Program-made: the position numbers and the translations under genes
Shown here: piece after piece, positions 33,896 through 58,378 of the stretch
How the letters are laid out: each line of letters begins with the position of its first letter
Position numbering within the stretch: the first letter of the stretch is position 1
Notes under the pieces: model-generated
What the model saw: the letters and a program-made list of their open reading frames with translations, nothing else
What the model was told of the DNA's origin: nothing
The model's database searches: none
Assembly (NCBI GenBank): GCA_963823665.1
Contig: CAWGMQ010000003.1
Location: forward strand, 928,001 to 992,000
From: an uncultured Planctomycetota bacterium
GTDB taxonomy: Bacteria > Planctomycetota > Planctomycetia > Isosphaerales > Isosphaeraceae
Reading direction: 5' to 3'
Length of the DNA: 64,000 nucleotides

Positions 33896-34337
33896 CTTGC
33901 GCTCCGTTCCCTTGAGAGGATCTTTCCTATATTCATGTCGTTTCCGGCTCTCGAGTCGCGGTCCCTCCCCCGCGCCACCGCCACTCGCCGAGCCTTCGCG
34001 ACGTGCTTTAATAAGACTGTACGCCAGATTCCCCCAGTCGCAACTCTCGCCGCAAATTTCGCGTGCTCATAAATTGATAAACTCGCGCAAAACGGCGCGA
34101 CCGTTAGAATCCGGAATCCATGCCACGCACGTGTGGCACTGACGAACTCAGTGGTCCGGTGTAGCAGGCATACTTCGTGTGCCGTCAACCGAAGTTGCCG
34201 GTTGCATGGCACTGACTATGCGAGCGTCCGTTAACGCGAGCGCGATCCTTCAGTCCCGAAAGGGGCCGTATTCATTACACGTAGGGTCCGCCATTGCGAA
34301 CCGTCCCTTTTTGGGTTGGGCACTCGTGCGCCGCGGA

Positions 34338-53727: not shown

Positions 53728-54426
53728 GGCGCGAGCCCCTCAAAAAGCGCGGTTCCGATGCGAACGAGCGTTGCGCCTTCCAGGATTGCAAGCTCGAAGT
53801 CGCCCGACATGCCCATGGAAAGCTCCGGAAGCGGCAAGCCCGTCTCGCGGGCGAGCAGGTTCTCGCGTTTCGCGCAGCCGGGCGAAGCAGCCGCTTGCGC
53901 ATTCGTCCGTGCCGTCCAGGGCAGCCATCGTCATCAATCCCACGACGGGGATCGACCGGCACCCGGCGATCCATTCGGAATCGTTGAGGATTTCGTCCGT
54001 GGTCCAGCCATGCTTGCTGGCTTCGCCCGACGTGTTGACCTGAAGGCAGACGGGAGGGGGCTCGACGCCACCCACGGCAGCCTCATTCAGAACTCTCAAC
54101 AGCTTGAGCGAATCGACCGCATGAATCATCTTCACCAGCGGCAGTGTTTTCTTGACCTTGTTGGTTTGCAAGTGTCCAATCAGGTGCCAGCGAATCGCGT
54201 CGCCGCGATCGGCCAGAACCTCGCTTTTCTTCCAAAGCTCCTGGGGGTAGTTTTCGCCGAGATCACAAACACCGCAGTCCAGCAGGGCCCTGATCCACTC
54301 CGGAGAGCTTCTCTTCGTGACCGCGACCAGGCGGACGTCCGCGGCGGGCCGCCCGGCCCGTTCGGCGGCCCGCGCGATGCGCGCCTGCACTTCCTCGAGA
54401 TTGTGGCGAATTCGCTCCTGGATCAT
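53724..54426 (-). CDS. yggS: PLP homeostasis protein YggS (frameshift ~53850)
   Basis: [42 protein letters not shown]; the shifted frame gives [23 protein letters not shown]. Confidence 0.93.
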
Positions 54427-54841: not shown

Positions 54842-56110
54842 TCACTCGACTTTGACGATCGGCGTCAGGTTTCCATCCGAGGTGAACAGCCCGATCAAGA
54901 ATCGCGCGCTCGTCCGGTATCCCAAAAACGCGCGTGGGGCGGGCGGGTCGAGGCTGCGGTAGACCACGTACGTCTCATGGGCTCCCCAGCTCACGCGCAC
55001 GGCGAAGGCCCGGTCGGGGGGTACGGCGTTGCCGCGCTGGGAGACGGTCAAGATGCGCCAGGACGCGCGGCGCCGGTTCCGCGCGGCGTCCCAGGAAACC
55101 AGGAGCGGCAGCCAGCAGCGGCGCCCCTCGGGCGCCTGGCCTAGAAGCAGGACGCCGTCCTGGGCGAGAAAGGCCCCGCGCTCCGTTTCGTAGGGCAGAC
55201 ACGGGAGCCCGATCGGCAGCACCTGCGCCGATTCGCGCCGCTTGGGTCCGTTCAGGCGAAACCCGCGGCACGCCGCCAGGTGCCCGGCATTGATCGACGG
55301 TGGACATGTGAGCCGGACGTTCAGGCTTGGGGCGAGTGCAGAGCGGGACTCGAAGAGAGCCGACAAGAGCGCCAGACGGCGGCCGCCCAGGAGCAGAATC
55401 GTCTGGGTTATCCGCGCCCGGCCCACGCGGTATGACCACTCCGCCATCTCGGCGCCCGAGACCGAGATCCGCGGCCCGGGTTTCGGCGGCGTGGTCGCGC
55501 CTGGCTCGCCCTCGATCGTCCACGAAGGCCCCAGCCAGGACCTGCCGGACCCGAAAAGCTCGAAGCGGCAGGACGGCCCTGACTCGCGGTGGTCGACGGC
55601 CACGAAGTCGCCGTTACCGCCAACCTGGTCGCGTAAGACCGACAACACGCGCCGGGAAGCGTCCCACGCGGGGGCTTCCGGGGTGAAATTCACGTCGCGC
55701 TGCCGAGATGCCTGCCAATCGCGCAGGTACCTGGCGGTCTCGGTGCCTTCGACGGCGTCAAGCCAGCGCCGCAGGGTCGTCTCAGGCGGGGCAAACGACG
55801 CACTGCCGTTGAAGTCGGCCGCCGGCGAGCCATCCGGTCGCGAGAACCGCAGCGTGGCGATGACCAACCTGGCAATGGATTCCTCCCAGTGCCCAGGCCA
55901 GCGCGGGCTCCTGCGCCTCGCCTCGCGAAGGGCCTCGAGACACACATGCCAATCCGATATCGGCAGCCGCGACAGCGACCCCCGCGAATCCAGCTCGCGA
56001 GCCAACCACCGTGAAAGGGGCTGCTCATTTTGGCGGCAGACCCACTGCTCGACCGAGCGATGGAAATTACCGAGAATCTGCGCACGGTTCCTCGAATCTT
56101 CGACCATCAC
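54842..56110 (-). CDS. conserved-looking hypothetical protein
   Basis: 422-aa ORF; AQVLPIGLP, SWRILTVSQ, VVYRSL..PAPRAFLG. Confidence 0.6.
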   Translation of the reverse strand: MMVEDSRNRAQILGNFHRSVEQWVCRQNEQPLSRWLARELDSRGSLSRLPISDWHVCLEALREARRRSPRWPGHWEESIARLVIATLRFSRPDGSPAADFNGSASFAPPETTLRRWLDAVEGTETARYLRDWQASRQRDVNFTPEAPAWDASRRVLSVLRDQVGGNGDFVAVDHRESGPSCRFELFGSGRSWLGPSWTIEGEPGATTPPKPGPRISVSGAEMAEWSYRVGRARITQTILLLGGRRLALLSALFESRSALAPSLNVRLTCPPSINAGHLAACRGFRLNGPKRRESAQVLPIGLPCLPYETERGAFLAQDGVLLLGQAPEGRRCWLPLLVSWDAARNRRRASWRILTVSQRGNAVPPDRAFAVRVSWGAHETYVVYRSLDPPAPRAFLGYRTSARFLIGLFTSDGNLTPIVKVE

Positions 56111-56449
56111 AGCACCTTCACGGGTCGACGGCCCATTGTCGGCTTATTGGGCGGAGCTGCACATATCCTAGACGATCCAAGCCGGGCCGCGCAGATTCCA
56201 GCGAATGGGAATCAACTGGATTCATCATCGGCGAAGGGCGCGTAAGACCTAAATTCTTTCAATACTTGTGGCGATCGATCGTGAAAGTCTCGCCGTCGGG
56301 ACGGCGGGTGTTTCGCCGGCTGCCTGCGTTCTGGCATTGAGTTTGCTTTTAGAGCTCACATCTGAGACGAAGCCAACAAAAGCAGGATCCACAATAGAAT
56401 ACTGGAGCCACGCTGAGCGAACACGATTGACTTTGCAAGATTCCACCCC

Positions 56450-56676
56450 AAAGGCGACAGCCGTTTCACAGACCCTGGAACGGCTCACCGCCACAGGGCG
56501 AGCGGGTAGCCTCGCACGACCCCCCGCTCGCCCTTTCTCAGCCAAAAGCCCGAGGTGTGAGAGGCACATCTTGAGCTTTCCCGACGAACCGGCCAGTCGG
56601 CCGGGTTCTGAACGACTAAGGGAGAGGTAGTCGTTCGGAGCCCGTTCTCTGGCCGGTTTTTTCATTTTATTTTTTT
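56450..56676 (+). ncRNA. candidate small RNA: four consecutive hairpins ending in an intrinsic terminator
   Basis: Stems at 56453-56492, 56495-56534, 56545-56579 and 56587-56658. G-U pairs only work on the + strand; U-tract follows. Both flanking genes are on the - strand. Confidence 0.6.
56587..56676 (+). terminator. rho-independent terminator
   Basis: AACCGGCCAG...CTGGCCGGTT stem followed by TTTTCATTTTATTTTTTT. Confidence 0.7.
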
Positions 56677-56677
56677 G

Positions 56678-58378
56678 TCATTGGCGATGCCGCAGTGCCC
56701 GGCCCGGCCGGGTAGCGGTCGGTTCGCCGTTTTCCAGCACCAGCCGGCCGTTTACAACCACGTGGACGATGCCCGTGCTGTATTGAAACGGCTCGAGGTA
56801 GGTGGCTCGATCGATCACGACCTTGGGGTCAAAGACGGTCACGTCGGCGATGCGGCCGCTGCGCAGAATGCCCCTGTCGTGAATGTGGGCCTTGGCGGCG
56901 CTCAGCGACGTCATTTTGCGGACGGCTTCTTCGAGGCGAAGCAGTTTTCGATTGCGTACGTATTCACCCAGAACACGCGGGAAAGTGCCGAAGCTCCTGG
57001 GATGAGGATGCCCGCGGCGCAGCGGCCCTTCGATCGCCAGCGCGTAGCCGTCCGAGCCGATCGAGCACCACGGCTGGGCGAGCGCGAGGTTCATGTCGCT
57101 CTCGGTGTGATGGGCGTAGATGGTGCCAATCGTGCCGTTTTCCTCGATCAAGAATTCGAACAGCACGTCGAGTGGATCCGGCACAGGGGTTCGGCCCTTG
57201 GTCTTGGCGGCGATGATCCGGTCCATCGTCTGGCCTTCGAACGCCTGGTTCGCCGGGCTCAACCGCGCGCTGATCTGCATACGCGACCAGTCGCCGCCCA
57301 CTGCCGTGTAATGGTTGTACCAGCCGGGGAGCCCCTCGCGGATATCACGCTTGAGCCGGTCGCGGAGTGAACGGTCTTTTAATCGCGCGACCAAAGCGGC
57401 AGCGCCCCCCTCGTGTGCCCAGGGAGGAATGATGCTGGCCAGGTCGTTGTTCCCCCGTGTGTAAGGATAAACGTTCGCCTGGACGTTAACGCCGTCGCGG
57501 CGGGCATCATTGATCAGCTCGATGATCTCCGGCATGCGTCCCCAGACCGACTGATCGGCGATCTTCAGGTGGATGATGTCGACCGGTACGTGGGCCTGGC
57601 GGCCGATCAAGATGGCCTCCTTCACGGCAGCGAAAACATCCGTCCCTTCGTTGCGGATGTGCGATGAATAGACCCCGCGATCGGCATTGACCACACGGCA
57701 AAGCTCGACCAGATCGTCGGTTGTGACCTCGAGTTCCCTCGGACTTGCAAGCATGGTCGAGAGCCCGATCGCACCATCGCGCATGGCCTCGTCAAGGAGG
57801 ATCTGCATCCGCGCGATCTCCTCGCGGCCGGGCCGGGCGAGCGAATCGCCCTGCACGCATTCGAGCAGTGTGCCCAGGCCGACGTAGCTGGCCACGTTGA
57901 CGGCAATTCCCTCCTTTTCGAGTGCCTGGAAATAGCCTCCCAGCGTCGACCAGGTACGGGTCGCACGCGCCCCCTTGAATGTCTTCGCCGAGCGTTCTCC
58001 TTTGGCCGGCCCGGCCGAAGTGTCCTCGCCCAGGATCTCGGTCGTGACTCCCTGGCGGACCTTGCTCGAAGCGCGTCCATCTTCGAGCAGAGTCATGTCG
58101 GAATGGGAATGCATGTCGATGAAGCCGGGGGCGACCACCAGCCCGCGTGCTTCGAGTGTTTTCCGCGCGGCGACGGCCGGCTCGACCGCACCGACCGTGA
58201 CGATCCGGTCGCCGCGAATGGCCACGTCGCCCGAGAACGAAGGCTGCCCCGTTCCGTCGACAATCGTGCCGCCGCGGATGATGAGGTCGAATGGATCTCC
58301 GGGTTGGCCCCGGGCAACGGTGGTCGTGCCGAAAGCGAGCGCTGCCACGAGCAACCATCTTCGAGCTGTGGTGGGCAT
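56678..58378 (-). CDS. N-acyl-D-amino-acid deacylase (amidohydrolase), secreted
   Basis: APGFIDMHSHSD, GVTTEILG, SHIRNE, HLK, GSDG, HPRSFGTFPRVL, ADVTVFDP. Confidence 0.93.
   Translation of the reverse strand: MPTTARRWLLVAALAFGTTTVARGQPGDPFDLIIRGGTIVDGTGQPSFSGDVAIRGDRIVTVGAVEPAVAARKTLEARGLVVAPGFIDMHSHSDMTLLEDGRASSKVRQGVTTEILGEDTSAGPAKGERSAKTFKGARATRTWSTLGGYFQALEKEGIAVNVASYVGLGTLLECVQGDSLARPGREEIARMQILLDEAMRDGAIGLSTMLASPRELEVTTDDLVELCRVVNADRGVYSSHIRNEGTDVFAAVKEAILIGRQAHVPVDIIHLKIADQSVWGRMPEIIELINDARRDGVNVQANVYPYTRGNNDLASIIPPWAHEGGAAALVARLKDRSLRDRLKRDIREGLPGWYNHYTAVGGDWSRMQISARLSPANQAFEGQTMDRIIAAKTKGRTPVPDPLDVLFEFLIEENGTIGTIYAHHTESDMNLALAQPWCSIGSDGYALAIEGPLRRGHPHPRSFGTFPRVLGEYVRNRKLLRLEEAVRKMTSLSAAKAHIHDRGILRSGRIADVTVFDPKVVIDRATYLEPFQYSTGIVHVVVNGRLVLENGEPTATRPGRALRHRQ

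Follow-up and report, generated by a model that had tools for sequence, protein, structure and literature searches.

CrcZ and Qrr are sigma-54-dependent regulatory small RNAs, the latter with multiple paralogues, and both depend on Hfq. An RpoN promoter of CrcZ is noted in the description of NrsZ from Pseudomonas (PMC4253122), the RNA that is closest in architecture to the one reported here and that we regard as an analogue, homology not being claimed. NrsZ is described there as transcribed from an RpoN promoter with NtrC-type activation, induced under nitrogen limitation and composed of one to six hairpins, the copy number being species-dependent, which carry the conserved 8-nt loop motif ACAGGCAG and are interspersed with variable spacer hairpins, and as processed into single-hairpin RNAs; the description leaves the mechanism open, and the screen it reports gave no protein partner. 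For the RsmY/RsmZ/CsrB group, Duss et al. called the A(N)GGAX bases irreplaceable (PMC4005645), while Zere et al. proposed that sRNA antagonists of CsrA driven by BarA-UvrY are a feature of Gammaproteobacteria and that FliW may be what Planctomycetes use (PMC4682653). The Rhodopirellula-1 motif (PMC2864571) is likewise a structured motif from Planctomycetes; it is described as cis-regulatory, a single long hairpin with a variable loop, and the rows compared lack the loop motifs of the present RNA. No regulatory sRNA of Planctomycetia was found described in the literature searched, and full-text searches brought up no description of this RNA, though the supplements of later motif surveys may list it. 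The gene analyzed below apparently represents an undescribed, modular family of sigma-54 sRNAs of Planctomycetia.

The window, i.e. the whole 64,000-nt stretch of DNA that was analyzed, comes from an uncultured member of the Isosphaeraceae and contains an intergenic gap of 567 bp (56111-56677) between two minus-strand ORFs, in agreement with the approximately 570 bp given in the earlier note. On one side lies a divergent gene (54842..56110, - strand) for a 422-aa protein that has no Pfam family and is heparinase II/III-like according to language-model features, and on the other a convergent amidohydrolase gene (56678..58378, - strand). The four + strand hairpins of that note were found where it had placed them: H1 (56453-56492), H2 (56495-56534), which is indeed a perfect stem with 12/12 bp paired, the spacer hairpin H3 (56545-56579) and H4 (56587-56658), which has a 10-bp base and 17-nt upper arms and ends in a U-tract (56657-56662), the predicted 3' end. 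The fold z-score was -6.38 for the + strand and -4.95 for the - strand, and 0 of 200 shuffles were as good on either strand. The + strand was fixed by the homologues, in which G-U pairs outnumber A-C mismatches by 100:31, 107:21 and 62:20 (three alignments), a three- to fivefold excess that upholds a strand call originally based on four G-U pairs, two in H3 and two in H4. In 46 of 49 homologues, the 8 nt that follow the final H4 contain at least five T.

Searches with the Rfam 15 covariance models gave a best E of 0.86 at the locus (21 bits, with a cut-off of 91), and no family reached its gathering score in the window or in eight homologous loci. The 6S, SRP, tmRNA, RNase P, tRNA and riboswitch families had no covariance-model match at the locus, which bears out the first impression that it resembles none of tRNA, SRP RNA, 6S, tmRNA and RNase P RNA. 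Elsewhere in the same genome, a sub-threshold 6S-like match was seen at L195 (35 bits, with a cut-off of 46.4). BLAST and three covariance models each place the element once in this 16.5-Mb, 92% complete genome; two weak model matches in it (L240 and L241) were rejected as not paralogue-like. Taken on the sequence comparisons, the small RNA gene is almost certainly real, and its boundaries (as sequence signals), strand, structure, modularity and loop invariance were established by comparison with homologues. The original proposal of an undescribed, free-standing, structured sRNA gene on the + strand stands.

The hairpins are preceded by a sigma-54 -24/-12 promoter (TGGCA-N6-TTGC, 56332..56346, + strand), for which the consensus was taken as given in PMC4253122. 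Transcription would start at 56358-56360, and from the position of the promoter we predict an RNA of about 305 nt (~56358-56662). This is longer than the ~220-270 nt proposed earlier, the sigma-54 site lying 50 to 60 nt upstream of the TAGAAT that the earlier note had called -10-like. The hexamer is present (56395-56400), but as a promoter it had to be dismissed: no sigma-70-type site was found, and a -10-like hexamer occurs in 3 of 57 leaders. Of 58 distinct copies of module A (H1-H2, see below), 57 have a sigma-54 site 147 to 317 nt ahead of the H2 loop, the background of the same pattern being 0.05 per 330 nt of window, and the A after GGC, which the pattern leaves free, was found in 50 of 50 copies. 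The next-best sigma-54-like site of the window, at 34207 (+), scored 16.8 as compared with 22.1 here and has no tandem boxes; rpoN is encoded in the genome. Transcription from the sigma-54 site is, on this evidence, very probable.

Farther upstream, tandem enhancer-like boxes of the form TGCMY-N7-RKGC, 21 to 22 bp apart (56137..56174, no strand assigned), are predicted to be sites of an NtrC-type activator, and they resemble the consensus of the 17-bp E. coli NtrC box (PMC8743547). In 42 of 50 homologues, the best tandem box site falls into a zone that begins 160 and ends 205 bp ahead of the promoter (31.5% in shuffles), a count from the same family set from which the motif had been read. In an independent set, 5 of 15 had perfect boxes (vs 1.2%), and in a second one, 25 of 29 matched at 9 or more of 10 (vs 16%); the first box of the window itself is degenerate. 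An activator of NtrC type is, by these counts, somewhat favored. A strict enhancer pattern run over the own genome gave 0 matches and also misses the window locus itself. The 5' leader (56358..56442, + strand) is variable and A-rich, and the leaders of homologues have no conserved ORF, their short ORFs being scattered and unrelated. ANTAR targets of the NalA/nasF type consist of two 3-bp hairpins with A1/G4 hexaloops, 5 to 12 nt apart. An ANTAR substrate was considered and rejected: such a dual hairpin was present in 0 of 56 leaders (shuffle mean 0.2), and in family f5, whose 30 genomes all have a match to the RNA model, ANTAR was detected in 0 of 30. A single genus lacks ANTAR as well as module A, which counts as one event. 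At L514, L517 and L521, a sigma-54-like site was noticed just upstream of REC-ANTAR-type genes.

The RNA can be divided into two modules. Module A (56443..56539, + strand) consists of a C-rich CCACCCC, H1, H2 and a pyrimidine linker. H1 has a conserved 4-bp base and a variable top, and the H2 loop core CCUCGCACGAC, to which the earlier note had not drawn attention, is invariant across homologues. In 58 sequences, 17 of 26 pairs of H1-H2 showed double changes, with a covariation score of 0.261 compared with 0.143 in shuffled alignments (0/500 as high); this and the other covariation scores given below (H4 and short forms) beat all of their controls, i.e. 500 shuffles and slid alignments, in which kinship remains. 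The covariation in relatives that had been proposed as a check is seen for the stems of H1, H2 and H4. BLAST with the core (~56442-56670) found 34 of 36 Isosphaeraceae genomes at E 3e-8 or better and one more weakly. A collection scan with a loose pattern yielded at least 118 loci, in at least 27 of which the H2 stem was true, and among the matches listed all 17 titled H2-stem loci were planctomycetes, including Isosphaeraceae, Paludisphaera soli and Singulisphaera sp. PoT. The covariance model of module A (R1) matched 31 of 36 Isosphaeraceae genomes and 0 of 114 others. Some paralogues that have the same promoter (L035, L050-L053, L056, L058, L060 and L153) contain module A but no H4 loop, and one of them (L058) has module A twice, in tandem. 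Within the genomes compared, module A is confined to Isosphaeraceae and separable from module B. An ammonium-transporter gene lies ahead of three of the H4-less paralogues and a CitMHS_2 transporter gene behind two of them, and a divergent copy was seen in which two module-A units and one H4 stand behind one promoter (L233:2443 and 2657).

Module B (56587..56658, + strand) is H4, a long rod that is also the terminator stem and bears the loop N-GGGAGAGG at 56619-56627. In an alignment of 61 hairpins (61 of 62 units, one short internal unit being left out), 18 of 20 pairs showed double changes (0.482 vs 0.229, 0/500), and the GGA of the loop is unpaired above these covarying stems; it is the one unpaired GGA among the five of the window RNA. 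Behind sigma-54-like sites we counted 197 loops with at most one mismatch, of which 183 were exact; among the 14 inexact ones, three clearly belong to the family, and 11 are chance-like or uncertain. The set of 183 was gathered by the motif, and the loop position is backed by model searches and a metagenome scan. Loops are 9 to 10 nt long, with extra bases entering only on the 5' side. The ANGGA that had been read as a feature of the loop proved not to be conserved, A(N)GGA being found in 69 of the 183 loops. A relaxed A-N(1-2)-GGA, with A at -2 or -3 before GGA, is present in 167, neither A being found in 16, and the upstream A covaries with the closing pair of the loop. Among 126 distinct apexes, 13 had neither A as compared with 26.8 expected by independence, a difference between related sequences that carries no valid p-value. 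H3 is kept loosely as a structure (fold z < -1.5 in 33 of 49 homologues) and not in sequence or loop, and an H3-like spacer is often repeated along with H4 in tandem arrays. The GAGAGG that the earlier note had seen in the loops of both H3 and H4 is present here; as a repeated feature it does not hold, since the H3 copy is found in this genome alone (1 of 49 homologues), and the H3 loop was dropped as a second site.

Module B was detected in 35 of 36 Isosphaeraceae genomes, including the module-A-less genus of this family (true in 3 of 4 regions), and in four other families. In some loci H4 is repeated two, five or seven times in tandem, at spacings of 62 to 137 nt, and 7 of 7 genomes of one genus have three to seven H4 units. 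A model of the short form matched 30 of 30 f5 genomes at E ≤0.05, with 1 to 10 matches each; the loop was present in 28 of 28 f5 genomes examined (one with a 4-bp stem only), 24 of which had a promoter match, and it was also found in three genomes of f14, one of f7 and one of f9. It was absent from nine f4, two f11, one f15, one f17 and two out-of-class loci; three weak f3 matches, two f4 matches and two f5 genomes were outside this check. Of 19 weak matches in other families, 16 genomes were examined; in 10 of these a sigma-54 site precedes the loop, and the remaining 6 have plain terminators. Among 141 genomes outside Planctomycetia, two weak matches were obtained, neither with the loop, and viral contigs gave 0 matches. 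A metagenome search for promoter, 5' motif and loop, in which a hairpin was not demanded, returned 39 loci, 31 of them distinct, and 30 of these had the hairpin (21 by script and 9, with a 10-nt loop, by eye). An alignment of 35 short forms (26 of the 31 distinct metagenome matches and nine genome copies) again had 18 of 20 pairs double-changed (0.526 vs 0.221). Promoter plus loop alone, searched in 401 genomes of the phylum, matched 72, comparable to the reversed control. As read from these alignments, the universal gene is a promoter, a hairpin with an N-GGGAGAGG loop and a U-tract, predicted to give an RNA of 70 to 100 nt in the other families, and the window holds its long, fused form; H4 is its universal core, in line with the early idea that its loop is probably where the RNA acts. 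At L282/L435, three and probably four complete short genes with their own sigma-54 sites follow each other at 420- to 600-bp spacing. Many short forms (alignment A6) begin at the 5' end with a near-invariant 3-bp hairpin that has GAGA as its tetraloop and shares GAGAG with the main loop; the search pattern had in part required it.

As to expression, ten RNA runs contained small shares of the region (0.05-0.10), and four of four examined had contigs over 56476-56671. One contig of 303 nt, reaching from 114 nt before 56487 to 8 nt past 56667, fits the predicted length; four further contigs end 87 to 144 nt ahead of the core, and two extend 52 to 60 nt beyond the U-tract. These contigs come from relatives, are strandless with undefined ends and belong to runs picked by this very sequence, uncovered flanks carry no weight, and the contigs give a weak hint of expression.

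Compared with NrsZ, this RNA shares the sigma-54 promoter (in the 57 of 58 module-A copies and 24 of 28 f5 genomes mentioned above) and a variable number of one-loop hairpins split by spacer hairpins, whereas NtrC-type activation has been shown for NrsZ and is predicted here. It differs in its loop (GGGAGAGG and not ACAGGCAG), phylum, much longer stems, the added module A and a host without Hfq, and no Rfam or sequence match connects the two; since the loop differs, it is NrsZ-like in design and not a member of NrsZ. With RsmY, RsmZ and CsrB, as described in PMC4005645 and PMC4682653, it has in common that it is free-standing, multivalent and multi-gene, with GGA in the loop and a CsrA-rich host. 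Unlike them, it has A(N)GGAX in a minority of loops, longer loops of 9 to 10 nt and usually one or two sites per RNA (RsmZ has eight GGA; the tandem forms here have two to seven units), and in place of BarA-UvrY/GacS-GacA it has sigma-54 and NtrC-like boxes, outside Gammaproteobacteria. Because it departs in A(N)GGAX and in its regulator, we did not file it under this group, although it may work like its members. CrcZ and Qrr differ by a shared motif and an Rfam match being absent and by their Hfq dependence, as Hfq was found in 0 of 151 Planctomycetia genomes.

We propose that an NtrC-type sigma-54 activator would bind the tandem boxes and that the sigma-54 promoter would drive a trans-acting RNA of ~305 nt ending at the U-tract of H4. 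The working unit would be the H4 hairpin, whose purine loop resembles a Shine-Dalgarno sequence with no start codon behind it; acting as a decoy, the loop would titrate a translational regulator that binds RNA, with one or more CsrA paralogues as the likeliest candidates, and free the mRNA targets of this regulator for as long as the signal is on. The dose may be set by hairpin repeats (1-7 per RNA) or by gene copies (up to 10 model matches per genome), and in Isosphaeraceae H1-H2 would be fused in front with a separate partner of its own. A decoy is suggested by the repeated, free-standing, Shine-Dalgarno-like loop with its unpaired GGA and no start codon, and the pattern of A at -2 or -3 points to recognition by a protein across a flexible spacer, although the loops compared are related sequences and 16 of them have no such A. 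The fixation of the whole 8-mer counts against a decoy, as it suits a pairing seed equally well. We give a titrating decoy for an RNA-binding protein an even chance, so that the protein sponge of the earlier note remains a leading mechanism.

That the titrated protein is a CsrA paralogue is a more tentative proposal. CsrA was found in 151 of 151 Planctomycetia genomes in 2 to 17 copies, ten of them in this genome, and all ten, when aligned with RsmE, retain its arginines R6 and R44 (for the role of R44, see PMC4005645). Genes for csrA are reported to be enriched for sigma-54 promoters in Planctomycetia (PMC12316311). In addition, a 2026 survey describes CsrA homologues as differing widely in how they read their targets (PMC13443453), which leaves room for a shifted code and does not show one. 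FliW was present in 71 of 151 Planctomycetia genomes, to be set against the FliW proposal of Zere et al. (PMC4682653), namely in 35 of 36 Isosphaeraceae, 0 of 30 f5 and 0 of 35 f4 genomes. Family f5, where the RNA accompanies CsrA without FliW in 30 of 30 genomes, was counted for a CsrA decoy, and f4, which has CsrA and no FliW and lacks the loop in 9 of 9 loci examined, against it. Further points against CsrA are that the RNA does not track it, CsrA being class-wide and FliW being kept in Isosphaeraceae, and that the loops deviate from the known code, with A(N)GGAX in 69 of 183, 9 to 10 instead of 5 to 8 nt and a single site in most copies. We put forward only tentatively that these RNAs sequester CsrA, as a family outside Gammaproteobacteria in which a subset of planctomycete CsrA paralogues would read a shifted A-N(1-2)-GGA-GAGG code. 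A hairpin for csrA autoregulation was looked for and discarded, as it is not shared among 20 csrA leaders. In the own genome (L186), fliW sits next to one csrA, a sigma-54-like site separates the two, and no flagellin gene follows within the locus.

The reading that comes nearest to the decoy keeps the same gene and control and makes the H4 loop an Hfq-independent base-pairing seed, which would kiss C/U-rich stretches, e.g. anti-Shine-Dalgarno strands hiding ribosome-binding sites or C-rich sRNA loops, with the C-rich loop of module A as a second seed. It accounts for an 8-mer that is fixed in the 183 exact loops with three clear member variants only, for extra bases on the 5' side only, as would be expected of 3'-stacked kissing loops, and for long stable stems that suit chaperone-free pairing in a lineage without Hfq; a kissing model has also been proposed for NrsZ, although no binding of NrsZ to its proposed target was seen in that work (PMC4253122). 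However, such a seed does not predict that the upstream A covaries with the closing pair, and no pairing target was found: complements of module A ahead of start codons in 41 genomes were about as frequent as in a reversed-pattern control. The 3' end of the 16S rRNA, which carries the anti-Shine-Dalgarno sequence, was not found in the assembly. We consider a pairing seed less likely than the decoy and still a strong rival to it. Clearly less probable is an internal tertiary contact or switch, in which the H2 loop or pyrimidine linker would meet the H4 loop, to which both are complementary on paper, or a cis attenuator of the next gene. Some copies do have a same-strand gene just behind them, i.e. 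amtB in L285, porin genes in L271, L272, L274, L030, L041 and L105 and a citrate-transporter-family gene behind two H4-less paralogues, and L285, which lies directly before amtB and has an 8-nt complement of its loop in its own 5' part, could act as an attenuator. Yet of 15 copies that lack module A, one has such a complement, the gene that follows is encoded on the other strand in the window and in many homologues, and each module occurs alone and is still invariant, so that an H2-H4 contact is unlikely to be essential.

The two readings that deny a functional RNA fare worse. H4 is a terminator-type stem, and 7 of 21 weak model matches examined were plain terminators, which might suggest a terminator cluster or a palindrome of the BoxC/REP type; but these palindromes are high-copy and have their purine arm paired in the stem, while here the 8-mer is unpaired in the loop, the stems covary and a dedicated promoter stands at a fixed distance. 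The high-copy REPs that the earlier note had itself named as the opposite case are at odds with a single copy in 16.5 Mb, and we judge this explanation very improbable. A small protein gene is, if anything, still harder to credit. ORFs cross the region on both strands (56268-56630, + and 56249-56665, -), but among 49 homologues a frame is open across the core in 20 (+) and 27 (-), the distance from H2 to H4 is spread over the three frames (22, 15 and 12), and the leaders share no ORF; no reading frame is conserved in the 49 homologues, as expected from the earlier statement that there is no credible + strand CDS.

If the CsrA decoy holds, the family would link translation, in a lineage without Hfq, to a signal of the sigma-54/NtrC type, its valency would be changed by tandem duplication, and the Isosphaeraceae form would be fused to a second, independent module. 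It also supplies a minimal candidate antagonist of CsrA, of 70 to 100 nt, for an Hfq-less, CsrA-rich lineage, and valency can be tested directly on the 1- to 7-mers that occur in nature. As a pairing RNA it would remain a conserved regulator that works without Hfq, and it would add a second case of the NrsZ architecture.

A homologue of the 422-aa neighbor lies upstream in 38 of 42 H4-bearing loci, and by this synteny it is a marker only; downstream genes differ in identity and direction between loci, and because of this variation the amidohydrolase gene is not counted as part of the system. Nearby in the window, an alanine-racemase-N-family ORF (53740-54426, - strand) ends oddly, possibly through an assembly error. 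Nitrogen limitation as the signal is conceivable, and we hold it only slightly less doubtful than the CsrA assignment. The boxes and a few neighbors suggest it: amtB precedes three of eight H4-less paralogues, and nitrite reductase or amtB stands beside two of 13 short-form loci. Against it, nitrogen-assimilation genes were 0 of 47 neighbors of metagenome copies, and in the own genome no sigma-54 site with tandem boxes was found before the two amtB, four glutamine-synthetase-family and ten csrA genes. The leader of the own glnA gave the idea of a decoy of its ribosome-binding hairpin, which was abandoned because the hairpin is not conserved in 24 aligned leaders (29 loci examined, five without an automatically found start). 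The glnA of L198 seems frameshifted near its start, again possibly an assembly error.

Other conserved arrangements of a sigma-54 site, hairpins and a U-tract were noticed during this work. Five f5 loci (L460:1568+, L463, L464, L466 and L491:1475+) contain a second candidate sRNA with two hairpins between the sigma-54 site and the U-tract, near-identical between genomes and without the GGGAGAGG loop; in L463 and L464 it lies about 5 kb from GGGAGAGG paralogues. One f4 genus (L473-L475) has a conserved sigma-54 site, hairpin and U-tract with another loop, and a further conserved set of this composition, also with a different loop, is present in the module-A-less genus of Isosphaeraceae (L485 and L486).
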